Assembly (NCBI GenBank): GCA_003560595.1
Contig: PWKY01000066.1
Location: 226-64,225 of the forward strand
DNA from: Thermoplasmata archaeon
Lineage (GTDB): Archaea > Thermoplasmatota > Thermoplasmata > Halarchaeoplasmatales > Halarchaeoplasmataceae
DNA length: 64,000 nt
Direction: 5' to 3'
Under the pieces are notes generated by a model. The model saw only the letters and a program-made list of their open reading frames with translations, did no database searches and was not told the DNA's origin. Shown here piece after piece: positions 1 through 49,394 of this stretch (position 1 is the first letter of the stretch; each line of letters starts with the position of its first letter). The translations under genes and the position numbers were made by a program.

Positions 1-959
1 CAATCTTTCCCAATGAGAACGAAAAAGAGATTGATCTCTTAGAAAAATGGGGTTTGAAACCATCTGAGTTATCAAAGGTAAAAGTATTCACTATCGGAGA
101 TGTTCCCGAATCCCTAAAAAAAGATGCAAAAAAATATTCTTCCATCCCCTTCAAATTCAAGTTGAACGATCTTAGTGTACAGGATTGGATATCGCTGGTG
201 AGGACTAACAACAGTTTAGAAAAACAATTCATACAGACCGTAGTCGGTAACTTGAAAGATAAACGAAGGGAGACCGGTATGGACATAGGGTTCGAAGATA
301 TCTACAAAGAGATAGATTTGAGTGAAACCACAGCACATCAAGGAACGGTAAACGCCTTTCGAAGACATGTGAAAAATGTGGAGGAAATGAATATATGTGA
401 TAAAGATGGAACCCGGTTAGACGAACTCATAAAAAGGGATCAAATATCGATCATCAGCTTACAAACCACAGAAACATGGGTTCAAGATGTGGTTATGTCT
501 GTTTTATTTAAGAAGCTACAAAAGGCATTGCCTTTACTGAGAGCGAACAAGCTACCACCATTCCTTGTGTTCATCGACGAGCTTCATAAATTCTTTAAGG
601 GAGATTATAAAGATACTGGAAAATTACTTTCGGAGTTTATAACGGTTTGTAGGGCCGCCGGTTCGGGAATGATTATGGCAAGTCAAAGACCCTCAGACAT
701 ACCTATTGATGTATTATCACAGACCAATATGGTGATAGCTCACACAATAGATAAGAAAAAGGACGCAAAAAGACTAACTGAAATATTATCTACTGAACTA
801 CCTGAAATATTTTATAGTGGTCGTCAGAGAATTTTGAAAAACCTTCCACAGGGTTTTTGTGTAGTGTCCGATAGTGATGTTGGATCATTTCTTTTAGCTG
901 TAAGACCTAGAGTTTCGATGCATGGGGGGGCTACACCAGATATATTGGAAACCTTATAA
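1..959 (+). CDS. HerA-like (DUF87/FtsK-type) P-loop ATPase, C-terminal part; ORF is open to the window edge
   Basis: Reading frame has no stop back to base 3. Walker B-like VFIDELHKF and the HerA-type arginine-finger segment ASQRPSDIPIDVLSQTNMVIAHTIDKKKD are seen in the translation. Confidence 0.6.
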   Translation, partial: IFPNENEKEIDLLEKWGLKPSELSKVKVFTIGDVPESLKKDAKKYSSIPFKFKLNDLSVQDWISLVRTNNSLEKQFIQTVVGNLKDKRRETGMDIGFEDIYKEIDLSETTAHQGTVNAFRRHVKNVEEMNICDKDGTRLDELIKRDQISIISLQTTETWVQDVVMSVLFKKLQKALPLLRANKLPPFLVFIDELHKFFKGDYKDTGKLLSEFITVCRAAGSGMIMASQRPSDIPIDVLSQTNMVIAHTIDKKKDAKRLTEILSTELPEIFYSGRQRILKNLPQGFCVVSDSDVGSFLLAVRPRVSMHGGATPDILETL

Positions 960-980
960 CGAATATGTGGAAGAGTATAC

Positions 981-2297
981 ATGAAATATTCAAAAAAGGA
1001 TATAGTACCCGACGATAGATTATATGTTTATAAGTCCGAGGATGAAGAATTCAAAAAAATACATTTATTAACCGCCTTAAAGCAAATAGACCAGGGGTTA
1101 AAATTAAAATATTTCAGGGTTGAAAATAGAGAGCTATTGCCGGTTGCAGCGATCCATCCCCATACTAGGGTTACTAAAACAGGTAAAACCCAGAAAGTAA
1201 GGGGTCACTGGAGAAGAATTCCAGAAAAAATTGAAGAATTACCCGAGGACATTGATTTGGAAGAAGAAGATGATAAAATGGACGAAATAGAAAATTACAC
1301 AGATATAATTGAAGAATTCAGAAAAAAATACGAAAAAAACATATCAAAAGAAAAAGCGGATCCCCCTGAAAGAGGTGAATACGAATATGAGGATGAACTA
1401 GATGAAGAGGAGATTAAAGAAGAAATCGATGAATATGAATACGAGTCTAGAGAAGAGTCTGAGGAGATAATAGAAAAACCACCGGAGCCTCCAGAGGATT
1501 TTAGATGTACTGCATGGTATGTTGGATTCCATTATAATGATGAATGGGGGATATGGGCACGCCTAGAAGCCATTAAAGATCTGGCGAAAAATGCTCTATC
1601 TTACATCTATAATGATCACGACTTCGAAGGGGCTGAAAATTCTTTTACATCGAAAAAAGCTTTCCGTAAAGTTCTCGGTAAAATGGTTTTCAATGAAATG
1701 ATGGGCAGCATCATCAGACACGAGATGTTCCATCACATGGTAGAGGTAACAGCAACCAACTACGAAATCATATCCGGAAAGAAAGTTTATTTACCTTATA
1801 AACATAGAGTTTACGAACCGACATTCAATACAGAAAATAATGTGGAAGAAGCTATGGCTAGTGCAAATAGTGTCCTTCCTTTCACTTCTAGAGAATTCAT
1901 AATCAATTATTCAAACAATGATAAACACCTTCCAGAACAGTATCGGAGAATACTAACGGTCAAGTTTGTTGAGGATGTTGACAGATATATCAGAAAGAAT
2001 TGGTTAGATAATGCACCCTATTCTTACCGAAAATATGTTAAGTATTACAAAACTTGGAAGGACTTTATGAAAGGGATAAAGGAGCTAAATTCTCAAATAT
2101 TGACTGCAGACGTTAACACTAAAGAAAAAGACTCGATTGAAATGACCTCTGGTCAACTGTTCGGGTCTCCAGAAATAGTATTTGTTCGGGGTGGAATATT
2201 TTCGGATGTAATGTATAGACACATCGACTTTTTCTCTTTGGTGAGGGATCAAAAAAACCTAAAAGACAAATTTCCTATACCTCTACATTTTGTTTAA
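981..2297 (+). CDS. Uncharacterized acidic protein with a central Glu/Asp-rich low-complexity tract and an HExxH motif (IIRHEMFHHMVE), possible SprT/zincin-like metallopeptidase domain
   Basis: 438-aa ORF 22 bp downstream of the herA-like gene. The HEMFH motif resembles the SprT-family HEMIH signature. No other recognisable domain. Confidence 0.45.
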   Translation: MKYSKKDIVPDDRLYVYKSEDEEFKKIHLLTALKQIDQGLKLKYFRVENRELLPVAAIHPHTRVTKTGKTQKVRGHWRRIPEKIEELPEDIDLEEEDDKMDEIENYTDIIEEFRKKYEKNISKEKADPPERGEYEYEDELDEEEIKEEIDEYEYESREESEEIIEKPPEPPEDFRCTAWYVGFHYNDEWGIWARLEAIKDLAKNALSYIYNDHDFEGAENSFTSKKAFRKVLGKMVFNEMMGSIIRHEMFHHMVEVTATNYEIISGKKVYLPYKHRVYEPTFNTENNVEEAMASANSVLPFTSREFIINYSNNDKHLPEQYRRILTVKFVEDVDRYIRKNWLDNAPYSYRKYVKYYKTWKDFMKGIKELNSQILTADVNTKEKDSIEMTSGQLFGSPEIVFVRGGIFSDVMYRHIDFFSLVRDQKNLKDKFPIPLHFV

Positions 2298-2431
2298 GTA
2301 GCTTTTTTACAGTATAGCCTTCGCCTTTCTTTCTTCGTTTTTATTTGACATTTCTGCCTATATATTAAAAAATCATTTTAAAAAAGATTGTCAGATTCCA
2401 ATAAGTTTTTTACATAGTAACAATTAAACCA

Positions 2432-3010
2432 TTGAAAAGGCGTTGTAAAATTAACGAAAAGGTGCTGAAAATATACTATATAGCGAGATATCCATTACCA
2501 AGTGCGCTCTTGATAATTGCTAGTTTCTTCTCCTTCCTTTGGGCTATCACTAGAAGTGATGAGAATAAGAAGGGGGAAAAGGTAATTGAAACGATATTCC
2601 AATTTATCGGTTTTTCCTGGGGGGTGACAACTCTTGTCTGGGGTGTATATACATTGGGTTCGGAATCGCATCCTGGCTGGGTAGCTTGGATATTGATAGT
2701 TGTAGGTCTATCCCTTTTCTTAAAACCGATAAAAAACATACCATGGGCATCTTTGGTTAGCTTATTAGCAGCTAGCTCGTTAACAGCTCTGCTAGCTTAT
2801 AATATGAGCCCAATACCGTTTTTTGGTTTTGATCTGAGATGGCTACTTGCGATAGTCTTCTTTAGTTTACTCTTCACACTTTATATCATACTGAAATTTC
2901 TAGAAGACTTGTTTAAAGTCGTGGGAATCGTACTCAGCTCAGATCCGATATCGTTAATTATCGGATTTGCAGGTATGGCCCTAGGAATCGTTAGCTTGTT
3001 CGTAGTTTAG
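2432..3010 (+). CDS. Hypothetical integral membrane protein (about 5 predicted TM helices)
   Basis: Hydrophobic segments throughout the 192-aa ORF; AT-rich promoter-like region upstream. Confidence 0.45.
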   Translation: MKRRCKINEKVLKIYYIARYPLPSALLIIASFFSFLWAITRSDENKKGEKVIETIFQFIGFSWGVTTLVWGVYTLGSESHPGWVAWILIVVGLSLFLKPIKNIPWASLVSLLAASSLTALLAYNMSPIPFFGFDLRWLLAIVFFSLLFTLYIILKFLEDLFKVVGIVLSSDPISLIIGFAGMALGIVSLFVV

Positions 3011-3043
3011 ATATATACATCACATTGAACGTACCACTGGTAC

Positions 3044-3448
3044 ATGGTATTAATGTTCATATCGCACTCTCAGTTAACACAACAAAAACGCATAAATATC
3101 GCTCCAAGTATGTTTATCTGCATGATATATCGATTAGTCTTCACCGAAAAACCTGATTATAATCAATGGTTGTTCGGTTTGCAACGCGGTGGAGGTAGTA
3201 GAGTCACAGCAGTATTTTATGCTGAAGAAATGGATAAATTAGGTCTGAAAGCACCTAAACATGTGAACCCAAGGGCGAGATTTTACTTCACAGAGAGGGG
3301 TTGGGAAGAGATAGGCAAAAAGCTCGTGGAGAAGGCAAATAAAGAGGGGTTCAAGGTAAAGGTGATCAAGAAAAAGAACCCCAAGAGGAGCGATGTGGCA
3401 TATAGCGATCCGTATCAGGTGGCGTTACTGCCTAAGAGTAAACGTTGA
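3044..3448 (+). CDS. Hypothetical protein with a basic C-terminus
   Basis: ORF only; the true start may be an internal Met (MIYRLVF or MDKLGL). Confidence 0.3.
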   Translation: MVLMFISHSQLTQQKRINIAPSMFICMIYRLVFTEKPDYNQWLFGLQRGGGSRVTAVFYAEEMDKLGLKAPKHVNPRARFYFTERGWEEIGKKLVEKANKEGFKVKVIKKKNPKRSDVAYSDPYQVALLPKSKR

Positions 3449-3525
3449 ATTGCACACATTTATCTCAAAGATTCATCATAACTAACTTGTTCCATGTTTG
3501 AAAAGCTCGATGAAAGCACTATTTC

Positions 3526-4191
3526 CTATTCAAACATATCCATCCAATCACGTCTTTCCCCATCTAATTCTTCAAAAAACAACAGATCCTCATGCTTCTT
3601 TATTCGAAAGATAGAAACCGCGTAATCGTATAATGTGATCTCCATACTGACTTTTCCTATATTTAGGTCATAATCACTCTTTAAATGCATAATTTCTTTT
3701 GCTTCATCTAAAGTTAAACCATAACTCTGCCACTTCATCATTTCCTTCTTTAACTCGATATCAGAATACAACTTATCTTCGATCTCTTCCGGGCTCATTT
3801 GTTCTAGGTCTTTTGAACTAATGATAGAGAGATGATGATCTAAAAGATCCAATTCCGGGTTTATACCCGTTTTTTTACCTAGATAATCAACTCTAGTCCT
3901 CAGCTCTAGCAGATAATCATATCTTGTTCTTAATTCGTATATCTTGTTATTCATCTCGTTGATAAAATCCTCGGAAAGAAAATCCTGGGCTTTTTCATTC
4001 ATTTCGAAAATCTCTTCGTCTTTACAGCCCCCATCGATCATCTCATTAATCTTGTCGCATATCTCAATTAGTCCCTCTTCTTTTTTTCCTAATACCTCGT
4101 TAACTCTCTCAAAGTCTTCAACAAACTTCTCGTGCAATTCTAATGCGTGATATAATGCTTTGATGTATTCCTCATGGTCGATATTCATCAA
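3526..4191 (-). CDS. Hypothetical acidic protein
   Basis: 221-aa ORF with consistent codon usage; no recognised motif. Confidence 0.4.
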   Translation of the reverse strand: MMNIDHEEYIKALYHALELHEKFVEDFERVNEVLGKKEEGLIEICDKINEMIDGGCKDEEIFEMNEKAQDFLSEDFINEMNNKIYELRTRYDYLLELRTRVDYLGKKTGINPELDLLDHHLSIISSKDLEQMSPEEIEDKLYSDIELKKEMMKWQSYGLTLDEAKEIMHLKSDYDLNIGKVSMEITLYDYAVSIFRIKKHEDLLFFEELDGERRDWMDMFE

Positions 4192-4351
4192 TTATACAAG
4201 AACTCGTACCTTGATATAATTTTCGTAACTGTTAATTCTAGTTTGTTTTTCTCCACAAAGATGTTAATACGGTGACCGTCAGAATTAAGAAATCTATAAA
4301 CATGAAAGAAAAGCTTATTTTTCTCATGAAAACTTACACCATCGTGATTTC

Positions 4352-4810
4352 ATGGTCAGTTTATACGGAGGAAAGATATATAGATACCATAATCGGCTCT
4401 ACCATATAGTGGACCGGAAAGAAGAGGAAGGTACGGTGAAGATATCTAAGATAACTAATCCCAAAACTAGTTTCTGGGTAGAAGAGTCGGAAGTGGAGTT
4501 CGTAAGCGATATGTTCGATGTACAGGGTGACAGTGAATTAGAAACGTGTTACGTTGCACTGGGGGTATACGGAAGATATACTCAGGAACTCGATTTCATA
4601 AGAACTTGTGGAAGATTACTGGAAGATTACGCAAATATGAAGAGGTTCGACGTAGGTGATTCTCGTAAAGAATTTATCGAACACCTGGCGGAAATGGACA
4701 TACTGATAGAACAGATGAAGATACTCTTTTCCTATGAAGAAGAGTGGGAACATATACGATCTCATAAATTATCTAACATTCGTTTTAATATCGAGGATAT
4801 GTTGAGATGA
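4352..4810 (+). CDS. Hypothetical protein
   Basis: 152-aa ORF; no recognised motif. Confidence 0.4.
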   Translation: MVSLYGGKIYRYHNRLYHIVDRKEEEGTVKISKITNPKTSFWVEESEVEFVSDMFDVQGDSELETCYVALGVYGRYTQELDFIRTCGRLLEDYANMKRFDVGDSRKEFIEHLAEMDILIEQMKILFSYEEEWEHIRSHKLSNIRFNIEDMLR

Positions 4811-5079
4811 AAACATCGATAGACGTACTCAAATTAGATCGTTAAATTCTTAGTTCTTCATCAGTGAATGGATCTATCAGATAACACGATCATCTATAGG
4901 AACTTATCCACGCCCGGTAACGATCTCGTAGTCTTAGAGTTTTTTAAACTTGACATTCTAGCGGCTGTAGATTCGGTTGGTATTCCTGTAATTGAAGCAG
5001 TTCGTACTTCATCAGGCTTATATCTATTCCTAATTGAGATCAGGTCGCTTTATTGATCAAGATCGACCTCACCCCGTTG

Positions 5080-5736
5080 TCATCCTAATGTACTCAAAAC
5101 TTCTTTGCAATCTTCGTCAGAGGTGATAGGGTCTATCACAGCTTTGATAAAACGCACGATCAGATCATCTAAAGTGCCGAATGCATCGACCATATCTAGC
5201 TCTGGATAGGTTTCCAGCAATCTATCGTTCTTTATGCTGACGACGGTATCTGCTATATCTTCCAGTTCGTTCAAAGCTTTCTCGGCTCTTTTTCCCGATT
5301 TTGCCCCTTCCACCTTGAACGGTAGAACACATATAGCGAAGATAAGAGCACAGTGTTCCCTAGCGATCTCTGCAACCATAGGGGCGGTAGCGGTACCGGT
5401 TGACCCGCCTAATCCGCTTACAAGGAACGTTATATCCGTTTTCTCCATGATCTCATCTATGGTATCCCTCTCTTCTTTATCTGCTCCCACTGATGAAAAG
5501 ATGAAACCACCAGTTGGATCTTTACATATCAAATATTTGTTCTCGATGGGAACAGTTTCTAAATGTGTAGAATCAACATCTATCGCGACCAATCCTACCC
5601 CGTGCATATCTACCTCGGTAGCCTTCCGGACTATGTTGCAACCAGTACCGCCAACACCGATGATATTCTTTCTCAGTTTCAAAGTGTTCAAAACCTCTTG
5701 CAACTCTGTTTCATCTTCCTTTGTTTCCATTCTCAT
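5080..5736 (-). CDS. FtsZ/tubulin-superfamily GTPase-domain-only protein (truncated FtsZ paralog lacking the C-terminal T7-loop domain)
   Basis: GVGGTGCN (glycine-rich T1 loop) and GLGGSTGTATAPMVAEIA (tubulin signature GGGTGSG variant) align with the FtsZ N-terminal domain. The protein ends at about 218 aa, before the NxDxxD T7 region. Confidence 0.65.
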   Translation of the reverse strand: MRMETKEDETELQEVLNTLKLRKNIIGVGGTGCNIVRKATEVDMHGVGLVAIDVDSTHLETVPIENKYLICKDPTGGFIFSSVGADKEERDTIDEIMEKTDITFLVSGLGGSTGTATAPMVAEIAREHCALIFAICVLPFKVEGAKSGKRAEKALNELEDIADTVVSIKNDRLLETYPELDMVDAFGTLDDLIVRFIKAVIDPITSDEDCKEVLSTLG

Positions 5737-5886
5737 TTCACTCCAAGACGTATATATTATTACGATATTTAAACTTACATATTGGCTTATAACTCATGCC
5801 GTTATCTTTATCTGATAAACTCAGGATGAATATGTTCTTTAATGTTTCAAATATGTGAGGGGATGATACATCGATACTACTTGTCG

Positions 5887-6567
5887 TCACTTAAAACACA
5901 CCTCTATTGCTTTTGTTTCCATCATTTCAATTACCTCCCTTAGATCTCCTTCAGAGTATCCCTCCAACCCCTCGGTATCGGGATCGATGTGGGGCGGCCG
6001 GCTTTCATAGTCCTGTAACACATACCTTTTAAACGGAGATATGGACCTCACCAACTCCAGTACATCCTCCGGGAATACCACGCCAGGTACCAGTGTGGTC
6101 CTGAACTCGTATTCGATACCGGACGATCTGATCAGCTCCATGGACTCCCGTATATCATCAGGATCCACATCCCCCATGAGGTGATACCTGTGGAAAGAGG
6201 TCTTCACGTCCATGGCCAGGTAGTCCACCGATCCACGTTCTATGATCTCCCTTAAAACATCGGGCCGGGTCCCGTTGGTGTCCAACTTGACTAGATATCC
6301 CATCTCCCTGATATCCCCGAGAAACTTCAGCAGATCTGGCTGTAGGGTCGGCTCACCACCGGTTACACACACCGCCTCTAGTCTGTCCTTACGTTCTTCA
6401 AGAAATCCCATTACGTGCTCTTCCGATATCAAAGGTACATCACCTCTCACAAGCCTCACGTTATAGCAGTAAGGGCAGCGGAGATTGCATCCCACGGTCC
6501 AGATTACGGCACAGAGGTGATCAGGATAATCAAGCAGCGACAGTTTCTGCAGCCCGCCTATCTTCAT
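5887..6567 (-). CDS. nrdG: Anaerobic ribonucleoside-triphosphate reductase activating protein (radical SAM)
   Basis: CNLRCPYCYN radical-SAM motif; start overlaps the nrdD stop (ATGA coupling); gene order nrdD-nrdG. Confidence 0.85.
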   Translation of the reverse strand: MKIGGLQKLSLLDYPDHLCAVIWTVGCNLRCPYCYNVRLVRGDVPLISEEHVMGFLEERKDRLEAVCVTGGEPTLQPDLLKFLGDIREMGYLVKLDTNGTRPDVLREIIERGSVDYLAMDVKTSFHRYHLMGDVDPDDIRESMELIRSSGIEYEFRTTLVPGVVFPEDVLELVRSISPFKRYVLQDYESRPPHIDPDTEGLEGYSEGDLREVIEMMETKAIEVCFK

Positions 6568-8678
6568 GCTTCCGCACTCACAGAACTTCTAAAGGTCTTG
6601 CGGTGCACGAACTCCTGACCCTTGCCTTCGTTCCACTGGTCCACAGGCCTGAGGTATCCCACCACCCGTGAGTAAACCTCGCACCGTACCTTCTGTCCAT
6701 ACTCCGCACAGCGTGGACAATGTCGATGTTCGCCTGAAATATACCCATGGTTGGTGCATATGCTGAAGGTGGGTGTTAGGGTAAAATACGGTATTGTATA
6801 ATTCTCGGCGATGGTGCGAACGAGCTTTTTGGTTGACTCTACAGACGGAAGCCTCTCGCCCAGGAACGCGTGGAACACCGTTCCACCCGTGTATTTCGAC
6901 TGTAAGGGTTCCTGCATATCTAGGGCTTCGAATAGATCGTCCGTGAACCCCACCGGGAGTTGAGTCGAGTTGGTGTAGTACGGTATGGATCCCTCGCCTG
7001 TGCTGAACCGTATTCCGGGATATCTTTTTACATCCGCCCTTGCCAATCGGTAGCTCGTGCTCTCGGCCGGCGTCGCCTCCAGGTTGTGCAGGTTCCCGGT
7101 TTCCTCCTGGAATTCCAACAGTCGTTCGTTCATGTGGTCCAGCACCCTCTCGGCAAAGGACACACCTTCATCCGTACATATATCAGTACCGAGAAGATTT
7201 AACATCGCCTCGTTCATACCGACTATACCGATAGTACAAAAATGATTTTTCCAGTATTCTCCGAACCTCTCACGAACATCGGAGAGATAGAATCGTGAGT
7301 ACGGATGCAGGTTACTGTGGGTCAGCTCTTCGATGACCTCTCTCTTTATGCTCAAACAGTCCCTGGCCTTCTCCATCAACTCGTCCAGCCGCTCAAAAAA
7401 CTCATCTTCACTTTTGGATAGGTGACCGATCCTGGGTAGATTCAGCGTTACCACACCGACTGAACCGGTCTTCGGGTTCGCACCGAAGAGTCCGCCGCCC
7501 CTTTTTCGCAGTTCCCGACTGTCCAGCCTCAGCCGGCAGCACATGCTACGTGCATCTTCAGGCTTCATATCGCTGTTCACGAAATTTGAAAAATACGGTA
7601 CCCCGTACTTCGCCGTCATCTCCCAGATCGGATCCAACTCGCCATTATCCCAGTCAAAATCTCCCGTTATGTTGTACGTGGGTATGGGGAACGTGAAGGG
7701 TCTATCCGCAGCATCTCCCTCCAGCATCACTTCGGAAAAGGCTCTGTTGATGGTGACCATCTCCTCCGCATGATCACCGTACGTGTCTTCTTTCATCTCC
7801 CCGCCTATCACCACACCCTGATCACTCATGTAATTCGGTGGCTCCAAATCCATGGTTATGTTGGTAAAAGGTGTCTGGAAACCCACTCTGGTTGGCACGT
7901 TCATGTTGAACAGGAACATCTGTATCTCCTGCTTTACCTGCTGGTAGTTCAAGTCGTCCGCCCTAACGAAGGGTGCCAGTAAGGTATCGAAATTGGATAC
8001 CGCCTGGGCACCGGCGGCTTCCCCCTGAAGAGTGTACAGGAAATTAACCACCTGCATCAAAGCAACACTGAAGTGCTTCGCAGGGCCGCTCTCTATCTTT
8101 CCCCTAGCACCCCGGAACCCTTTCACCAATATCTCCTCTAGATCCCACCCTACACAGTAGGGTCCCAGTGTTCCCAGATCGTGTATGTGGATGTCGCCTT
8201 CCATGTGCAGTTTACTTATCTCCGAGGGGTAGAGCTTGTTCAACCAGTAATTAGAAACCACCGTTTCGGTGGTATAAACGTTGAGCCCCTGTAGCGAGTA
8301 GCTCATGTTGCTGTTCTCCTTCACCTTCCAATCCATCATGTCTAGATAGTTATCCACCACCTCGATCTCCTTGAGCAGTCCGCCGACCTCACGTATGTCC
8401 TGGTGCTGTTTTCGGTACAGTATGTAGGCCTTGGCGGTCCTGTACTCTCCGGCCTCCATGAGTACTTTCTCTACAAGGTCCTGCACGCTCTCCACATCGG
8501 GTATCTCGCCCATCGGCGTGTTCGACTTGAGTATCTCCACCACCTTGTCGGTCAGTTCCACAGCCGTATTGAGGTCTTTGTCACCCACAGCCAAGGATGC
8601 TTTCCATATTGCATTCGTTATCCTTACCGGGTTGAAATCCACAACTTTCCCATCCCTTTTTCTTATCTTTCTTATCAT
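6564..8678 (-). CDS. nrdD: Anaerobic ribonucleoside-triphosphate reductase, class III
   Basis: 704-aa ORF. C-terminal zinc site CPRCAEYGQKVRCEVYSRVVGYLRPV with a glycyl-radical-type region; conserved RNR class III blocks. Confidence 0.85.
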   Translation of the reverse strand: MIRKIRKRDGKVVDFNPVRITNAIWKASLAVGDKDLNTAVELTDKVVEILKSNTPMGEIPDVESVQDLVEKVLMEAGEYRTAKAYILYRKQHQDIREVGGLLKEIEVVDNYLDMMDWKVKENSNMSYSLQGLNVYTTETVVSNYWLNKLYPSEISKLHMEGDIHIHDLGTLGPYCVGWDLEEILVKGFRGARGKIESGPAKHFSVALMQVVNFLYTLQGEAAGAQAVSNFDTLLAPFVRADDLNYQQVKQEIQMFLFNMNVPTRVGFQTPFTNITMDLEPPNYMSDQGVVIGGEMKEDTYGDHAEEMVTINRAFSEVMLEGDAADRPFTFPIPTYNITGDFDWDNGELDPIWEMTAKYGVPYFSNFVNSDMKPEDARSMCCRLRLDSRELRKRGGGLFGANPKTGSVGVVTLNLPRIGHLSKSEDEFFERLDELMEKARDCLSIKREVIEELTHSNLHPYSRFYLSDVRERFGEYWKNHFCTIGIVGMNEAMLNLLGTDICTDEGVSFAERVLDHMNERLLEFQEETGNLHNLEATPAESTSYRLARADVKRYPGIRFSTGEGSIPYYTNSTQLPVGFTDDLFEALDMQEPLQSKYTGGTVFHAFLGERLPSVESTKKLVRTIAENYTIPYFTLTPTFSICTNHGYISGEHRHCPRCAEYGQKVRCEVYSRVVGYLRPVDQWNEGKGQEFVHRKTFRSSVSAEA

Positions 8679-10880: not shown

Positions 10881-13484
10881 CTATTTCATTTTTGATTCTA
10901 TATGATCGATGACCTGGTGTATCTCACACGGTTGCACAACGATCAGATCTCCTTCTTTTGCCATCTCAAATCCGGCTTCTATGGCTTCTATCTCATCGAT
11001 TATCACCGTTACGCGATCTTCCGATAAACCAGCTTCTAAAACACCTTGTTTTACCAACTCCGCAGTTTCTCCGATGTTACGATACCTGGGGTCTGCATCG
11101 TTTATGATCACACGGTCGTATATCTTCCCGATACCCCTTCCAAAGTCGATGATATCTTCCGTCGGGCGGTTCCCAGTTCCCGAACATATAGTTATCTTTT
11201 CATTATCTGTTAGCTCATCCAATATCTTTGATATAGCTTCGACAGCGGGTCTGTTGTGTCCGTAGTCTATCATGACTTTGATCTTACCAACATCCATTAT
11301 GTTCATCCTTCCAGGATTTTGGTTGGTAGATGACTGGAAGGTCAAAAGCCCGCTTTTGATAGATTCGATGTCTATATCAAGGGCAAAGCATGAGGCAACT
11401 GCGGCTAATGAGTTCTGCAAGTTGAAGGCAGCTTTACCCTTAAATGCTATGGGTATATTAGCCACCTCGACCACCTTCCAAACGCTCTCACCTTTCTTTA
11501 TAACTATCCTATCGTCATCGACGGTTACAACTATACCGCCTTCGGAAAGATGTTCTTTTACTTCATTCATATCTGGGTCTAGTGAAAATAGTATGGTGTC
11601 CGCGTGAACGATATCTTTGTATCTGAACACATTGGGGTCCTCAGCATTGAGCACGGCTTTACCTGAAGCTTTAACGGTTTCCACCACGATACCCTTGAGG
11701 CGAGCCATGTCCCTTATGGTATTGATGCGCCCCTCACCCATGTGGTCCTTTGTGACGTTCAGGAACACGCCCACATCGCTCTCGTAATATCCTAACCCCC
11801 TTCTTAATATACCTCCTCGTGCCACCTCTAACACCGCATGATCAACGGTCTTTTCTTTTAGAACAAATTTTGCCCCCTGTGGTCCGCTAAAATCCCCCTC
11901 TTTCAATAGATGATCGCCTCTAAACAAACCGTCAGTACATGCGACGCCTACGTTTTTACCACTCAACATCAAGATATGGGCTATCAATCTGACTGTGGTG
12001 GTTTTTCCGTTGGTCCCTGTCACTGCCACTATCGGCACTCTACTCTTTGCTCCTGGTGGAAAGAGCATATCTAACACATACTTGGCAACGTTCCTCCGCT
12101 TCCCCTCATATGGATCCAAATGCATCCGAAATCCAGGTGCTGCGTTCACCTCTATTACCCCTCCATCACCATGCTTTATCGGTTGTTTCATGTCCTGAAC
12201 GATCAGATCGATACCCATAACATCCAAACCGATTATATCGGCGATCCTTTCAGCTAACACCTTATTATTTGGATGTAACGAATCGGTCACATCGGTAGCG
12301 GTCCCCCCCGAGCTTAGATTTGCGGTTGATTTCAGTAACAACTCTTCTCCTTCGGGAAGAACTGTGTCTAAAGTATGGTTATTCTGTTTGAGGATCCTTT
12401 TTGTCATGTAATCTATTTCGATCTTAGTAAGTGTTTTCTCGTGACCTACCCCTCTTCTTGGGTCGCTGTTCAATACCTCTATCAGTTCTTTTATAGATGA
12501 TCTACCATCACCCCTTATGAATGGAGGATCTCTTCTAGCTGCAGCAACAAGCTCTCCATCTATCACCAGCATCCTGTGATCGGCTCCTTTCAAATATTCT
12601 TCGATGACTACATTGGGATCGATCTTTTTAGCTATCTTAAAAGCGAGTTTTAATTCCTCACTATCCTCCACCCTTGAGGAGATCCCTCGTCCATGGTTAC
12701 CTATATTCGGTTTTACAGCTACTGGATAACCTGATCTCTTTGCCATGCTTAAAGCCTCCTCTATAGTTTTGACCGTCCCCCCTCGGGGAACGGGTATGCC
12801 CGCTTCTTCAAGGATATCTTTCGTATTTTTCTTATCATCGGCGATCTCAACGGCGATGGCGGAAGTGTTCTCGGTCATACTGGCTTGCACCCTCTTTTGA
12901 TAAGAACCATGGCCCAGCTGGACGTAGCTGTGCTGGTTCAGCCTTATATAAGGTATACCCCTGCGGTATGCTTCACTTACTATGGATTTTGTAGTAGGCC
13001 CAAGCATATTCTGGTCCCGAAGGTACTTCAATTTTTTTAATACCTCTTCGATATCCGGTTCCTCCCCCTTCGTCAAGGCTTTAACTACTCTTACTGCTTC
13101 TTTACCTGCTTCGATGCCGGCGTCTTCATCTCTGTACCTGAAAGCTATTTCGTATATCCCATGTTGGTCAGTAGACATAGTTTTTCCGAAACCTACATCC
13201 ATGTTGGCTAGGCACTGCAGTTCTATGGCCACATGTTCAACTATATGTCCTAACCATGTACCCAATTCCACTCGTTCCAAGAAACCTCCTTCGTATCCCC
13301 GGCTACAGCGATGGGCTTTCAATGAGGGTAAGAGTGATTTCAAGCGTTCTACGAAGCCTGGTATCTCATCAGATGGTCTATCTTCGAATTCTTCGATATC
13401 TAAAAGCATGTATACCACCTGATATCGACTAAAGTAATTTGGCCCTCTGAGGGCTCTGATCTCTTGGATCTCTATGATTATCAC
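10881..13484 (-). CDS. cphA: Cyanophycin synthetase (ATP-grasp + Mur-ligase domains)
   Basis: 867 aa. N-terminal IQEIRALRGPNYFS and FLERVELGTWLGHIVEHVAIELQ, an ATP-grasp core, then the Mur-ligase P-loop AVTGTNGKTTTVRLIAHIL. Collinear with bacterial CphA. Confidence 0.85.
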   Translation of the reverse strand: MIIIEIQEIRALRGPNYFSRYQVVYMLLDIEEFEDRPSDEIPGFVERLKSLLPSLKAHRCSRGYEGGFLERVELGTWLGHIVEHVAIELQCLANMDVGFGKTMSTDQHGIYEIAFRYRDEDAGIEAGKEAVRVVKALTKGEEPDIEEVLKKLKYLRDQNMLGPTTKSIVSEAYRRGIPYIRLNQHSYVQLGHGSYQKRVQASMTENTSAIAVEIADDKKNTKDILEEAGIPVPRGGTVKTIEEALSMAKRSGYPVAVKPNIGNHGRGISSRVEDSEELKLAFKIAKKIDPNVVIEEYLKGADHRMLVIDGELVAAARRDPPFIRGDGRSSIKELIEVLNSDPRRGVGHEKTLTKIEIDYMTKRILKQNNHTLDTVLPEGEELLLKSTANLSSGGTATDVTDSLHPNNKVLAERIADIIGLDVMGIDLIVQDMKQPIKHGDGGVIEVNAAPGFRMHLDPYEGKRRNVAKYVLDMLFPPGAKSRVPIVAVTGTNGKTTTVRLIAHILMLSGKNVGVACTDGLFRGDHLLKEGDFSGPQGAKFVLKEKTVDHAVLEVARGGILRRGLGYYESDVGVFLNVTKDHMGEGRINTIRDMARLKGIVVETVKASGKAVLNAEDPNVFRYKDIVHADTILFSLDPDMNEVKEHLSEGGIVVTVDDDRIVIKKGESVWKVVEVANIPIAFKGKAAFNLQNSLAAVASCFALDIDIESIKSGLLTFQSSTNQNPGRMNIMDVGKIKVMIDYGHNRPAVEAISKILDELTDNEKITICSGTGNRPTEDIIDFGRGIGKIYDRVIINDADPRYRNIGETAELVKQGVLEAGLSEDRVTVIIDEIEAIEAGFEMAKEGDLIVVQPCEIHQVIDHIESKMK

Positions 13485-45029: not shown

Positions 45030-48000
45030 TTGTCAGGTAAATACCTCAAAGCGAGGCAACTCGCAAAAGAGATGGAAAAGCTCGCAAAAAAGACTGCCGA
45101 GGATAAGAAGGAAGCCTTAGATAATCTAGAGAAGGCCGAAGAACTACTAGATGATTCAAAGGAGCTGGGGGCAGATGTTGAGGGGGCTGAAGAACTCATA
45201 GATGAAGCCCGGGAACACTTCGAAGAAAAGGAATTAGAAAAGACGATCGAAAAGGTAGAAAAAGGGTTGGAAATAATTCGTGAAGCCAATAGTAAGAGGG
45301 TCACCGATCTGATGAAAGGTACCGAAGAACTTCATGAAATGATCGCAGAGGAAGATAGATACAAAGAGTCTCTAGAACTCCTTGATCAGGCTAAGGAGGC
45401 GATGGAGGATGATGATTTTAAAGGTGCCATGGAAAAGGCAAAAGAATCTTTGGACCTAGCTCTGCTCGAGATACAAGAAAAACTGACTGATGAATTCGCC
45501 ACCTTGGATTCAATGGTCATCTCTCTTGAAGATAAAGGGGAAGATCCAGAAGAGATCGAAACCAAGGTGCAGGAAGCTAGAGATGCCATGGAACAAGATG
45601 ATTTCCAGACCGCCGTATCACTGGTTAATGAATGCAAAGAATTACTGCATAAGGACTTGAAGGCATTGGTCGAGGAAGAGATAAATAAAGTGAAGAAGCA
45701 GGAGGAGATGATAAGAGAGGGTGGAGGAACAACTGTAGATATCGAAGAGATGATAAGCAAAGCTAGAAACCGTATCAAGGATGGTCACTTTGAAAGTGCC
45801 GTAGAATTCGTCGATGACGCAAAAAATGAATTGAACGAGGCCATGGAAGCTGTAGTTGAAAAGGTGGAAGGCGATATCGAAGGATCACTCAATGAAGCTA
45901 AAGAGATCGAATGTGACATAAGCAAGATAGACGAGATGAGAGAAAGGCTCGTCGACTTAAAATATGAAGGTAAATACAGCGAAGCTTATGAACATATCCA
46001 GAAAATAATTGACAAGCTCGAGGAATTAAAATTCCAAAGAGTGTTAAAGACCATCGCGGAGTCCAGAGACCATTTTATCAAGGGCAAAGAGATAGGGATA
46101 GACATATCTGAACCCATGGGTCTTTTGAATAAGGCGAGGACCTCTCTAAAGGAAGGGGATCATAAAGGAGCATTGGATTGGGCAAATGCCGGGAGACAGA
46201 AGGTAAGGGAGCTTGTGGAGGAACACGAACGCATCGAGATGCGTATAGCCGAAGCCAAGAGAGTAAAGCAGGACCTTGTTGATATAGGCATAGAGCTAAC
46301 CGAAGCAACCAGTATAATATCAGCATCTGAGGAGGCCCTAGGAAAAAAGGATTACGGCGCAGCCGAAGAAAAGCTGGAAGAATTCGACGGATATATCGAT
46401 AAAAATGCCTATGAAGAGATAATGAAACTGGTAGAAGATCTAGAGGTCAAATTAAATATCGCAGAAGATATGGATCTAGATGTTGCTGAGTACACTGAAA
46501 GTTTGGAAGTGGCCATCGCAAATACTAAATCAGCCGAGTATGCAAAGGCTGGTAAGATAACCTTAGATACTTTAGAAGAACTGAATGATCTGATAGAAGA
46601 AGCACTGGATAAACGTATAAAAAACATGAGAGAACTCGTACAAAAGACACAGCAAGAGATGACTGAGGAAGAGGACCTGGAAGAGTTGGAGAAAGTAGAG
46701 GGATTAGTAGAGGAAGTAGAGAGTGCGTTCGATGAAAGCGATTATCGCAAAGCTCACGATTGTTTAAAGAACGTATCTTCCGAGATCAAAAGATGGAGGG
46801 TTGGAGAGGCGGAAGAAAGATATACACGTGTCAAGGAACTGGTCGGTTTGGTCAAAGAACTCGAGATTGAAAATATAGATGAGGATGCGTATGAAGAAAG
46901 GCTTGAGAAAGTCACTGAGGCATTCGACGATGACGATTATACCAACGTTGTAAAGCTCTCCGATGAGATGCTTGATAGTCTTAATAAAGAGTTCGAAAGC
47001 ACTGCTGAGGAAGTATTCTCCCGGGCCAAGATGGAGGCCGTTAAAGCAAAGAAGGCCGGGGTCGATATCGAAGATCTAAGAAGCAGACTGATCGACTGTA
47101 AGAAACTCATACGAAATCAGGACTTTACCTTAGCGATAAGGAATTCCTTGAAGGTCGAAGAGGACGCTAAAAGGATGACGAAAAAAAGAAAATCCAGTTA
47201 CGATCTTATATCCTCTTTATCTACAACTTTAACCAAGCTCAGAAAGAAGGGAGAGATCGAAGATATAACTCCTGCTAAGGAATTATTACTTAAAGCAAAG
47301 ACCAGTTTCCAGGATAAAGATTATACTCAAGCTGAAAATTTGGCACTACAGGCTAAAGAAAAGATAGGCGAACTCACAGCAAAGAGCGAATTCGAATCGA
47401 AACTCAGGAAGCTTCGGGAAAACCTAGAGGAAGCCAATGCTCTTGGTATCGACACTACAGATATAGAACTTGATCTAGATGAAGTAACCTCAATTATGAA
47501 AGAAGGAGATATCGAAGAAGCTGTGGAGGGTATAAGAGAGGCTCAGGAGAATATAAAGGAAAAGATGAGTGATTTTGTAAAACCTGAGATCGAACGCACC
47601 CGTGACATAATCAACTCTGCTAACAACATCGGTGTTGACGTATCTACTCCTGAAGCCATACTTGAAGAGGTCGAGAGTTTATGGGAAGCTGGTGACTTCT
47701 CAAAAGCTTTGACCGAGATAGAAGAATGTAAACGAGAGATCGAGGGCATCAAGAACAAAAGCAAACGTGCAGCAAGTGGTGTAAAACGTGTAAAAGATAG
47801 GATATCAAAGGCCAAGGATCTTAATGCGGATGTTAAAGAACCGGAAAAATACATGAATCAAGCTATAAAAGCACTGAAGGAAGACAGGTATGAAGATTCA
47901 ATCAAATTCACAAAAAAGGCAGAGGAGAGTGTTGAAGAGGCTGAGATGGTTAGGGTTTACAGCATACTGGAAACCTTCAATAAGAAAATAGCAGAAGTAA

Positions 48001-49394
48001 GAAAGGAAGGAGTGAACACCGCCTTCGCAGATAACCTGATGAAGCGTGCTGAAAAAGCCATGGATGCAGGTAAATACCACGAAGCGATCAACTTGGCTAT
48101 GCAGAGTGAAGGGGAGGTAGAGAGGATAGAACTGCAGAAGGATATCGCAAAAAGGAGTATCTCTACAACTCAAAAGAAGATCGAGGATGCCAAGGAAGAA
48201 GGCATAAAGGTAGGCGACGCAAAAAAACTATTAGACCAGGCAAAACAAGCATACAAAGGTGGCTTTTACGTAAAGGCATTCGATAACGCAGTTAAAAGCG
48301 GAGACGACGTCAACCATGTACTCAAAGCACATCAGGAGGTATCAGAAAGATTAGAGTCACTGCCCAAACTGATAGATGCCATGGATGGGCTTGAAGTAGG
48401 GGAAAAAGAATTACAAAAACGATTTGAAGACATCAAACGTTCTATGAGTAGAGGAAGGTACACCAAGGCTTTAGAAACCATCAAAGAAAACGAGAAAAGT
48501 TTGGAAGAAGTCAAAGAGCGTTTACATGATAAAATAGATGAAATCGAAAAAACTGTAAATAATTATCAGGATCAGGGAAAAGAAGTGGGGTCCGCATCTG
48601 AGTTACTTCAAAACGCAAAAGGGAACGTAGATATGGGTGAGTTGATCGAAGCGTGTAACCAGATACAAAGTGCTAAAAAGGAGTTCGGAGGAGATGCTGT
48701 AGAAGGGTATCAAAAATATATCGGCGAGGCTAAAGAATTGATACAGATGGCTAAGAAGTTCGGAGCATCCATCACAGATGCTCAAGGGCTGATCAAGGAG
48801 GCCACTTCTTTGGAAGGGGAAGATATATCTGGTGCTAGAGATAAGGCCCACGAAGCACTAGAGTGCATAGAAAAGTCTTTAGAACCCTACAGTCCCAATA
48901 TATCCTTATCTTCAAAAGCCAAGCTTCAGAAGGGAGATTGGAATACTATCAAAGTCGAATTTAAAAATACTGGTAGAGGGGTCGCGAAAAGTCCCGAGCT
49001 ATCCGTGTCAGGCGGCGAATTGAAAAAAGTTGATCTACCAGCCATGCTCAAGGCCGATGAGGAATTGGAATTAGAAATTAAGTTGAAACCCATCGATGAA
49101 GTAGTTACTCTTACCGCTTTGGGAACTCGAATATTCGACCAAAAAGAACTGACCGATGAAGAAGAGATCGAAGTTGTTGAAAAGTTGTACGGATTTGTAG
49201 AGGCGGAGGGAGGAGAGCACTGCAATATATGCGGTGGTACGATAAAAGAAGGGTTAGAGATAATCCGATGTAGTTGTGGAGAAACCATTCATAAACCGTG
49301 TGGGGAAAGGGAAGGTAAATGCCCGAACTGCGGGGTAGAATTGAAGGAAAAGAAAAAGAAGAAGGCATCTAAACGGGTGGCTTTGAAGATATGA
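45030..49394 (+). CDS. Giant (1454 aa) acidic helical-repeat protein: about 18 tandem TPR/MIT-like helical-hairpin units separated by coiled coil, with a C-terminal C4HC3 RING/PHD-like zinc finger and a poly-Lys tail
   Basis: Recurrent [LI]G[IVA]D[IV]s..e.ll..A.......GD[FY]..A......A unit about every 35-40 residues. C-terminus HCNICGGTIKEGLEIIRCSCGETIHKPCGEREGKCPNCG. TTG start in the track; first in-frame ATG at 45072. Confidence 0.6.
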   Translation: MSGKYLKARQLAKEMEKLAKKTAEDKKEALDNLEKAEELLDDSKELGADVEGAEELIDEAREHFEEKELEKTIEKVEKGLEIIREANSKRVTDLMKGTEELHEMIAEEDRYKESLELLDQAKEAMEDDDFKGAMEKAKESLDLALLEIQEKLTDEFATLDSMVISLEDKGEDPEEIETKVQEARDAMEQDDFQTAVSLVNECKELLHKDLKALVEEEINKVKKQEEMIREGGGTTVDIEEMISKARNRIKDGHFESAVEFVDDAKNELNEAMEAVVEKVEGDIEGSLNEAKEIECDISKIDEMRERLVDLKYEGKYSEAYEHIQKIIDKLEELKFQRVLKTIAESRDHFIKGKEIGIDISEPMGLLNKARTSLKEGDHKGALDWANAGRQKVRELVEEHERIEMRIAEAKRVKQDLVDIGIELTEATSIISASEEALGKKDYGAAEEKLEEFDGYIDKNAYEEIMKLVEDLEVKLNIAEDMDLDVAEYTESLEVAIANTKSAEYAKAGKITLDTLEELNDLIEEALDKRIKNMRELVQKTQQEMTEEEDLEELEKVEGLVEEVESAFDESDYRKAHDCLKNVSSEIKRWRVGEAEERYTRVKELVGLVKELEIENIDEDAYEERLEKVTEAFDDDDYTNVVKLSDEMLDSLNKEFESTAEEVFSRAKMEAVKAKKAGVDIEDLRSRLIDCKKLIRNQDFTLAIRNSLKVEEDAKRMTKKRKSSYDLISSLSTTLTKLRKKGEIEDITPAKELLLKAKTSFQDKDYTQAENLALQAKEKIGELTAKSEFESKLRKLRENLEEANALGIDTTDIELDLDEVTSIMKEGDIEEAVEGIREAQENIKEKMSDFVKPEIERTRDIINSANNIGVDVSTPEAILEEVESLWEAGDFSKALTEIEECKREIEGIKNKSKRAASGVKRVKDRISKAKDLNADVKEPEKYMNQAIKALKEDRYEDSIKFTKKAEESVEEAEMVRVYSILETFNKKIAEVRKEGVNTAFADNLMKRAEKAMDAGKYHEAINLAMQSEGEVERIELQKDIAKRSISTTQKKIEDAKEEGIKVGDAKKLLDQAKQAYKGGFYVKAFDNAVKSGDDVNHVLKAHQEVSERLESLPKLIDAMDGLEVGEKELQKRFEDIKRSMSRGRYTKALETIKENEKSLEEVKERLHDKIDEIEKTVNNYQDQGKEVGSASELLQNAKGNVDMGELIEACNQIQSAKKEFGGDAVEGYQKYIGEAKELIQMAKKFGASITDAQGLIKEATSLEGEDISGARDKAHEALECIEKSLEPYSPNISLSSKAKLQKGDWNTIKVEFKNTGRGVAKSPELSVSGGELKKVDLPAMLKADEELELEIKLKPIDEVVTLTALGTRIFDQKELTDEEEIEVVEKLYGFVEAEGGEHCNICGGTIKEGLEIIRCSCGETIHKPCGEREGKCPNCGVELKEKKKKKASKRVALKI

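Follow-up and report, generated by a model that had tools for sequence, protein, structure and literature searches.

HerA-effector systems and the archaeal locus

The described HerA-effector pairs closest to the locus reported here, SIR2-HerA, DUF4297-HerA and TdpAB, place a divergent HerA ATPase directly upstream of a non-NurA effector in an accessory island. The same arrangement is found at the start of a 64,000-nucleotide stretch of DNA (hereafter the window) from a Thermoplasmata archaeon (contig PWKY01000066.1, positions 226 to 64,225 of the forward strand, assembly GCA_003560595.1), in which a divergent HerA-like ATPase gene directly precedes the gene of a 438-residue protein (hereafter the partner). 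While the effectors of the known pairs are NADases or nucleases, the partner is a predicted metallopeptidase, and the ATPase comes with an extra Cdc48-type AAA ATPase. The HerA anti-phage systems modelled in PADLOC and NCBIfam were considered and rejected as an assignment, the partner having no PADLOC match and the HerA matches being partial. The canonical HerA-NurA-Mre11-Rad50 repair set has the ATPase superfamily in common with the locus, including the Walker B and arginine-finger region, whereas the window ATPase misses the equivalog cut-offs, has other neighbours, is joined to an AAA domain and lies in a compositional island. In the conflict loci known as capture systems, DndFGH among them, a HerA/FtsK module works with another ATPase of the AAA+ class (PMC10853773, PMC12839542). 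They resemble the window locus in this pairing, and in one bacterial case a zincin gene directly follows DndH; however, their second ATPase is of the Orc/Cdc6 or inactive D5 type and is accompanied by winged helix-turn-helix modules and nucleases, in place of the classical-clade unfoldase and zincin seen here (PMC10853773, PMC12839542). No metallopeptidase is described in the capture-system paper, where the lone ‘peptidase’ is a GATase domain coupled to D5 helicases within conjugative elements and is no part of a capture system (PMC10853773/PMC12839542).

A first-pass annotation of the window, made by a model from the nucleotide letters and a list of open reading frames (ORFs), had proposed that the HerA-like ATPase and an acidic, SprT-like HExxH protein encoded after it form a two-gene conflict or repair module. 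We find a real, conserved and very rare operon with three parts that belongs to none of the known systems with which we compared it. From their sequences, these parts are a probable Cdc48-D2-like AAA unfoldase, a putative hexameric translocase of a divergent HerA/FtsK type, and a gluzincin-like protein that may serve as effector or regulator. Our preferred reading, held tentatively and with somewhat less than even confidence, is that the locus is a horizontally acquired conflict module, for defence or for mobile-element addiction, with these three parts as its conserved core.

The ATPase gene is visible in the window as an open frame running off the 5′ end (plus strand, positions 1 to 959, read from nucleotide 3, stop codon at 957-959), which comprises the C-terminal 318 codons. 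The partner gene (981 to 2297, plus strand) follows after a spacer of 21 nt (960 to 980); the first-pass annotation had thus rightly placed it close downstream, and had given the gap as 22 bp. A word-indexed search of 5.8 billion proteins returned the partner itself (P0001) and only one orthologue (P0002; 447 aa, 52% identity), which is encoded 13 nt downstream of the HerA gene of a second locus (L001/L002, assembly GCA_030673205.1; hereafter L001). Both known partner orthologues directly follow orthologous HerA genes, and as the spacers are short in both loci (21 nt and 13 nt), we regard the ATPase and partner genes as one operon. The co-occurrence check advised along with the first-pass annotation came out in favour of the pair: a partner orthologue is present in just one further locus, and the pair is kept there. 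The genes downstream of the module are unrelated between the two loci, so that the conserved unit can be delimited as AAA, HerA and zincin. A shared downstream membrane-protein gene was considered as a further component and rejected, since the membrane proteins encoded there show no homology between the loci.

An AAA-HerA ATPase encoded by one gene or two

In the window fragment, the Pfam HerA_C model matches with 29.8 bits (gathering score 22, E 3.2e-7), and DUF87 scores 22.6 bits, just below its cut-off of 23.2. The Walker B strand of the HerA module (FLVFIDELH, 561 to 587, plus strand) lies inside the HerA_C match and overlaps the VFIDELHKF motif (567-593) pointed out in the first-pass annotation. 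Downstream is the ASQRPSD block (678 to 698, plus strand), a motif of FtsK/HerA type that we take, in line with known FtsK/HerA motifs, to be the arginine finger; it begins the segment ASQRPSDIPIDVLSQTNMVIAHTIDKKKD (678-764). The earlier assignment of these two features to a HerA/FtsK-type C-terminus was borne out. With a Walker A motif (GRTGSGKS) in the more complete protein described below, in addition to FIDELH and ASQRPSD, the upstream gene product is, on motifs and profile matches, a P-loop ATPase of the HerA/FtsK superfamily. The arginine-finger block of the L001 HerA orthologue is identical except for a change of R to A (‘SQAPSD’).

Searching with the complete L001 HerA orthologue identified a longer version of the window ATPase (P0004), encoded on a JGI metagenome contig (L003; 3300000563, record SL_3KL_010_SED) that is 100% identical to the window across 1577 overlapping nt and extends 1803 nt further upstream. 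The upstream sequence that the first-pass annotation had wished for to complete the ATPase was thus obtained in part: P0004 reaches at least 919 aa and is still incomplete at its N-terminus, the window beginning at about its residue 601. Look-ups of the exact partner protein gave no match, and searches of genome and metagenome contigs by partner protein and by exact 40-mer yielded no extension of the locus besides L003. From N- to C-terminus, P0004 consists of a Cdc48-like AAA domain with its lid (the protein begins within a classical AAA domain, matching the C-terminal part of PF00004 followed by AAA_lid_3), a coiled-coil linker, a beta-rich domain and the HerA/FtsK-type P-loop module, on which DUF87 now scores 43.6 bits. 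The stretch between AAA and HerA comprises a Lys/Glu-rich linker of about 270 residues plus the beta-rich region.

In L001, the AAA protein (at least 368 aa), the HerA-like protein (645 aa) and the partner are encoded by three consecutive genes. P0004 aligns with both ATPases, its residues 16-190 with the L001 AAA protein and its residues 288-919 with the L001 HerA (51% identity). As judged from these alignments, the AAA-HerA combination, which is encoded by a single ORF in the window and L003 but split between neighbouring genes in L001, is a fusion/fission pair, from which we argue that the two ATPases are functionally linked. The module was accordingly not well described as having two genes, with a Cdc48-type AAA fused to HerA here and encoded next to it in L001.

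The closest relative of the AAA domain is the D2 domain of VCP/Cdc48 (VCP-like ATPase 5vc7, E 1.6e-82), and the L001 version scores 127.5 bits against PF00004. Its motifs (GPPGCGKT, FIDEID, the pore loop KYVG, sensor-1 ATN and the SGRF arginine fingers) identify it as a classical-clade AAA domain akin to Cdc48, PAN and FtsH, and an aromatic pore loop of the KYVG type is typical of polypeptide threading. Models for FtsH, PAN, CDC48 and CdvC all match far below their family cut-offs. Membership in Cdc48/VCP proper was rejected on this ground (TIGR01243, 180 bits, cut-off 803); a single AAA domain can be seen, the N-terminus being incomplete in both loci. FtsH (AAA plus M41 zincin) and the Cdc48/PAN-proteasome machines resemble the locus in combining a classical AAA unfoldase bearing an aromatic pore loop with a protease; by contrast, the protease of the window is a separate polypeptide from an unrelated zincin family, a membrane anchor is absent and the system has an extra HerA ring. 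The theme of an AAA ATPase with a protease is also shared by the anti-plasmid and anti-phage system IetAS (AAA protein IetA plus S8 protease IetS). The L001 AAA protein matches PADLOC IetA with E 4e-37 and NCBIfam IteA_antiphage with 117 bits, short of the equivalog cut-off of 510 and no better than generic AAA similarity; moreover, the protease class differs and IetAS has no HerA.

The HerA part fared no better as a repair helicase, an assignment rejected at 29 bits against the cut-off of 970 for NCBIfam helicase_HerA and at 19.5 bits against 800 (NF040819 and NF040937 equivalogs), in line with the first-pass view that the gene is not the canonical repair HerA. Neither nurA nor mre11 nor rad50 was found next to it: upstream lies the AAA domain of its own ORF (L003) or the AAA gene (L001), and downstream the zincin gene. 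In a possible further departure from the HerA-effector pairs, no HAS-barrel, the N-terminal domain of HerA proper, was detected, Pfam giving no match at E up to 0.1 on P0004, the L001 HerA or a third HerA orthologue (P0005, see below); a beta-rich region precedes the ATPase core. Among solved structures, its nearest relatives are YjgR, the DUF4297-system HerA (8xau) and TdpA (8wet). PADLOC HerA models match the ATPase with partial coverage (E 1e-13 to 1e-7), and the NCBIfam HerA_antiphage models stay below threshold or give no match. The C-terminus also matches PHROG 2666, ‘terminase large subunit’ (E 7e-17), and, weakly, CedD and VirB4 models. Phage, plasmid and IMG/VR collections contained no relatives of the ATPase beyond generic AAA matches.

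The partner and a family of zincin-like proteins

The partner can be divided into four parts. A basic N-terminal domain (residues 1-82, positions 981 to 1226; pI 9.9, predicted beta-rich) carries the best-conserved block of the protein, IHPHTRVTKTGKTQKVRGHWRR (1155-1217), and is restricted to the subfamily of the window partner; a PDB search with the N-terminal 87 residues gave chance-level haptoglobin matches only. It is followed by an acidic linker (residues 83-176, positions 1227 to 1508) with 46% Asp plus Glu and the conserved islands MDE.E.Y.DIIE.FRK.Y and PPERGE; at 94 aa it is longer than the roughly 60 residues given in the first-pass annotation, which had the protein length and the presence of the tract right. 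Next is a zincin-like domain, gluzincin-type by prediction (residues 177-389, positions 1509 to 2147). It contains IIRHEMFHHMVE (residues 244-255, positions 1710-1745) with the motif HEMFH (1719 to 1733), whose H247, E248 and H251 are the predicted zinc ligands and catalytic base, and, at the start of the next long helix, the invariant pair E289-E290 (1845 to 1850), a candidate for the third zinc ligand. The C-terminal tail (residues 390-438, positions 2148 to 2294) is conserved in both orthologues. It occupies the place where many bacterial relatives have a HicA domain, and the idea that it is itself a HicA was rejected for lack of a Pfam HicA match and an hhalign probability of 0.1% against the HicA region of the family. 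No part of the partner matches a Pfam, NCBIfam, PADLOC or PHROG model, and no relatives of it were found in the phage and plasmid collections. AlphaFold modelling of the full-length partner from the two-sequence alignment reached a pLDDT of 35.

An exhaustive HMMER search with the C-terminal domain of the partner against 1.84 billion cluster representatives recovered 336 proteins (E up to 1e-3), with P0001 as the sole protein scoring below 1e-30; the family thus holds at least 336 clusters at 50% identity. The HExxH motif noted in the first-pass annotation is no chance occurrence, being kept in P0002 and in 148 of the 149 best remote homologues, and with this conservation the partner is most simply seen as a zinc hydrolase. 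Across an alignment of 142 sequences, H78, H82, E120 and E121 are invariant (partner H247, H251, E289 and E290), and E79, E86, the N-terminal hairpin AWY..H....WGI and several Tyr residues are at least 90% conserved. The first His and the Glu-Glu pair are 42 residues apart in 113 of 145 family members, giving the family signature HExxH-X37-EE. An acidic leader in the ~100 residues before the domain is found family-wide (median 22% D/E, compared to 10% elsewhere in the protein), and in the window subfamily this leader is exaggerated and the basic N-domain has been added.

The AlphaFold domain model built on the family alignment (pLDDT 84, pTM 0.85) shows a short beta-hairpin, a 41-residue HExxH helix (predicted helix 56-96), Glu-Glu at the start of helix 119-132 and a helical bundle with APYSYRKY, the equivalent of PPGYR. 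Foldseek against PDB and BFVD gave no significant match for the domain, and a profile search of PDB sequences gave no relative; fold matches at low Z are to gluzincins of the M49, M32, M3, M1 and MATCAP types. Considering its motifs, its helix arrangement and these weak but consistent fold matches, we read the domain as a divergent metallohydrolase of gluzincin type, in which the Glu-Glu pair on the later helix would be the candidate third metal ligand. An invariant HExxH, a Glu and a conserved Tyr make up the standard catalytic set of gluzincin peptidases. The SprT/Spartan resemblance proposed in the first-pass annotation did not hold up: SprT, WLM, DUF4157 and M78 gave no Pfam match (the window protein being scanned to E 1 and 38 members of the family to E 0.01), the third motif is a Glu where SprT-type proteins have a His a few residues past HExxH, and no fold match points toward SprT. 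The zincin domain defines a protein family that neither Pfam nor NCBIfam models, and PADLOC and PHROGs lack a model for it as well.

Outside the window subfamily, many members carry a C-terminal HicA toxin domain (14 of 38 by Pfam scan, 59 of 149 by motif; ~40% of bacterial relatives). One such zincin-HicA gene (L013, 5001-6263) lies 130 nt after a DndH homologue (3-4871, at least 1834 aa; PADLOC E 5e-78) that ends in a HerA/FtsK module. Independently of the archaeal loci, the zincin family is thus found a second time beside a module of HerA/FtsK type; as this is the only bacterial context examined with such a neighbour, the HerA/FtsK linkage is specific to the archaeal subfamily and not general. 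In L020, the zincin-HicA gene (4676-5917) directly follows a type III Mod-Res pair. Three IMG/VR prophage contigs place it between the terminase gpA/portal genes and a ParB-methylase (L018, 2524-3744; L019, 8008-9228; L021, 779-1999, minus strand), in each case with a conserved 73-aa ORF upstream; these bacterial proteins, including that of L020, measure ~407-414 aa. Further family members occur in an integrase-MerR-VWA island (L014), near a Cas4-like/DUF2779 gene (L008) and near a YjiV_N-DEAD helicase (L022). Defence and addiction genes are found in settings such as those examined for the family. The zincin-HicA fusions examined had no separate HicB beside them. A spaced-motif scan of IMG/VR gave one chance match only, within a portal gene. 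For one family member (P0065, JGI), the source name covers the HicA part only.

A described precedent for an HExxH domain within mobile, toxin-linked modules is ImmA/IrrE (COG2856; PMC2701414), and the analogy is that of a protease switching its partner on or off. The present zincin family differs from it in having no Peptidase_M78 match, in its larger size (~210 aa), in its Glu-Glu third motif and in being fused to HicA, not paired with Xre.

Genomic setting and possible roles

The module lies in a low-GC island (1 to 5000, GC 0.35-0.39 against 0.44), which continues for at least 1.8 kb upstream in L003 and comprises, besides the module, four orphan ORFs that follow it to about nucleotide 5000. 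The ATPase and partner genes have a GC content of 0.36-0.38 (rest of the window ~0.44) and a third-position GC (GC3) of 0.33-0.36, compared to about 0.43-0.45 in housekeeping genes; none of the four island ORFs matches a family model in Pfam, NCBIfam or PADLOC. The first-pass description of an AT-rich stretch of uncharacterised ORFs was thus apt. The setting of the module fits an earlier survey, in which the families enriched in archaeal ‘dark-matter islands’ include HerA-like ATPases and those of the CDC48 family (Makarova et al. 2014, PMC4158269). As a separate observation, the island ORF at 4352-4810 (plus strand, 152 aa) weakly matches PHROG 2245 (a nucleoside triphosphate pyrophosphohydrolase of MazG-like type, E 2e-6) and has no match in Pfam, NCBIfam or PADLOC. 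tRNA and Rfam scans of the window were both empty.

The remaining window is ordinary archaeal chromosome (PAN proteasome ATPase, NFACT, DUF763, DUF835, nrdDG, ABC1 kinase). At the edge of the island, the gene at 5080-5736 (minus strand) encodes a 218-aa protein with an FtsZ/tubulin GTPase domain only (Pfam Tubulin, E 6.5e-27); it scores 158 bits against the TIGR00065 cut-off of 295, covering model positions 4-209 of 353, and has no C-terminal domain. The nrdG and nrdD genes (5887-8678, minus strand) are GC-rich outliers (GC 0.51, GC3 0.59-0.64, against ~0.44 in neighbours), which suggests separate acquisition or strong codon bias. An 867-aa ORF (10881-13484, minus strand) combines a cyanophycin-synthase N-domain, ATP-grasp and Mur-ligase, the architecture of cyanophycin synthetase, on an archaeal chromosome, and a 1454-aa ORF (45030-49394, plus strand) has no Pfam match at E up to 1e-5.

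The reading of the locus as a conflict module draws on the domain identities, the intact and conserved motifs, the fusion/fission pair, the conserved gene order, the compositional island and the contexts of the zincin family, from which we infer possible interactions, a trigger, an activity and a phenotype. Of the two roles offered in the first-pass annotation, conflict is the one that genomic context favours, and repair has found no support. We propose that the HerA ring would engage nucleic acid or serve as a scaffold, as in other HerA-effector systems, and that the HerA-type and Cdc48-type rings would be tethered via the coiled coil. The partner might dock on HerA through its subfamily-specific basic N-domain; the AAA ring could then either strip the acidic leader and so switch the zincin on, or, like FtsH, supply it with substrates already unfolded. 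The target, from the host or the invader, would be proteolysed, leading to growth arrest or to a block of the invader.

Several points weigh against a conflict role. Two independent loci among ~15 billion proteins leave co-occurrence statistics minimal, and the N-terminus of the ATPase and the DNA upstream of it lie beyond the visible sequence, at the ends of L003 and the window. By family-library scans, the 5 kb downstream hold no recognised defence, integrase or viral gene. Furthermore, a third close HerA orthologue (P0005; L004, 91-2772; 46% identity), the closest HerA relative apart from those of the two module loci, differs in its N-terminal half, where an unrelated region of ~500 aa with no Pfam match replaces the AAA domain and coiled coil, and is followed by no partner gene on its own strand. 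Among the HerA-like proteins at greater distance (24-28% identity, ~1000 aa), some of them named Helarchaeota by NCBI, those whose contexts were read likewise have no zincin partner and reside in a conserved housekeeping neighbourhood: the contexts of P0008, P0009 and P0013, from three assemblies, share glmS, PGM/PMM, a hexapeptide transferase and an S-layer gene (~1000-aa HerA-like genes at L005, 10001-12955; L015, 6001-9261; L017, 2870-6040). Since P0005 and the distant relatives occur without a zincin partner, the ATPase clade is not obligatorily one of conflict genes. The C-terminus of P0009 shows weak CasR/CARF3 matches in PADLOC (E 1e-5).

Four other explanations were weighed. The locus could be part of an integrated archaeal virus or plasmid, with the AAA-HerA protein as a packaging, segregation or transfer motor and the zincin as an accessory factor for maturation or lysis. 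The low-GC island with its orphan ORFs, the terminase match with the weak CedD and VirB4 matches, and the virus and plasmid association of HerA-like and CDC48-family ATPases in dark-matter islands (PMC4158269) would all suit such an element, but genes for a capsid, a portal, an integrase, replication, conjugation or a tRNA were not seen in or beside the visible island. Moreover, the phage and plasmid collections hold no relatives of either protein other than generic AAA matches, the same being true of IMG/VR for the ATPase, and what is conserved is the three-part core only, the downstream genes differing completely between the loci. Taking both sides, we consider this origin unlikely. About as unlikely is that the HExxH domain does not act as a protease on other proteins but is a sensor or switch, cleaving itself or a cognate inhibitor (as ImmA/IrrE does with its repressor), or else hydrolyses bonds other than peptide bonds; it would gate HicA in bacteria and the ATPase here. 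The HicA fusion implies a regulatory partnership in cis, and the fusions examined have no separate HicB next to them; the family-wide acidic leader could be a pro-segment, and no characterised peptidase is a close structural match. Against this, the invariant HExxH, Glu and Tyr are the standard set of a gluzincin peptidase, and a switch would be compatible with a conflict module, overlapping that reading more than excluding it.

A lineage-specific housekeeping protease dependent on ATP, in which the Cdc48-like ring unfolds substrates for the zincin in the style of a split FtsH and HerA is a structural or regulatory addition, seems very unlikely to us. It would account for an AAA domain whose pore loop is of the unfoldase type sharing an operon with a predicted metallopeptidase, and the nearest larger HerA-like clade is indeed chromosomal and syntenic with glmS, PGM/PMM and S-layer genes; the extremely sparse distribution (two loci), the foreign composition, and the association of zincin relatives at large with HicA toxins, with restriction systems and with prophages speak against it. 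Least credible, and already largely refuted, is a role in DNA repair, in which HerA would be paired with a SprT/Spartan-like protease clearing DNA-protein crosslinks. The basic N-terminal domain of the partner could conceivably bind DNA, and the HerA family includes a repair helicase, but the HerA score far below the equivalog cut-off, the absence of nurA, mre11 and rad50 from the flanks, the lack of SprT/WLM similarity with a Glu in place of His as putative third ligand, and the sparse, island-borne distribution all run counter to it. The conflict module remains the reading that we prefer. An extended form of it, which we regard as distinctly unlikely, would have the locus encode a new class of archaeal immune machine in which a single polypeptide bears two ring motors, a HerA-type translocase of nucleic acid and a Cdc48-type protein unfoldase, and where detection of invading DNA leads to ATP-driven activation of, or substrate delivery to, a protease of a new gluzincin-like family; in bacterial prophages and defence islands, zincin-HicA would on this view act, widely and so far unrecognised, as an effector or switch made of one chain.

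The first-pass annotation had called the pairing of HerA with a metalloprotease uncharacterised, and we likewise found no description in the literature of such a pairing, of a zincin-HicA fusion or of a fusion between a DNA-pump ATPase and a protein unfoldase. To our knowledge, HerA-based conflict systems are known only with NADase or nuclease effectors. If our preferred reading is true, a protease would be added as a new effector class of HerA systems, and the AAA-HerA protein would represent a new motor combination, with a DNA-pump ATPase and a protein unfoldase joined in a natural fusion. The zincin domain would then found a new metallopeptidase-like family with no close solved structure and experimentally tractable in bacteria, where it may explain ‘HicA-like’ genes with a large unnamed N-terminal part.

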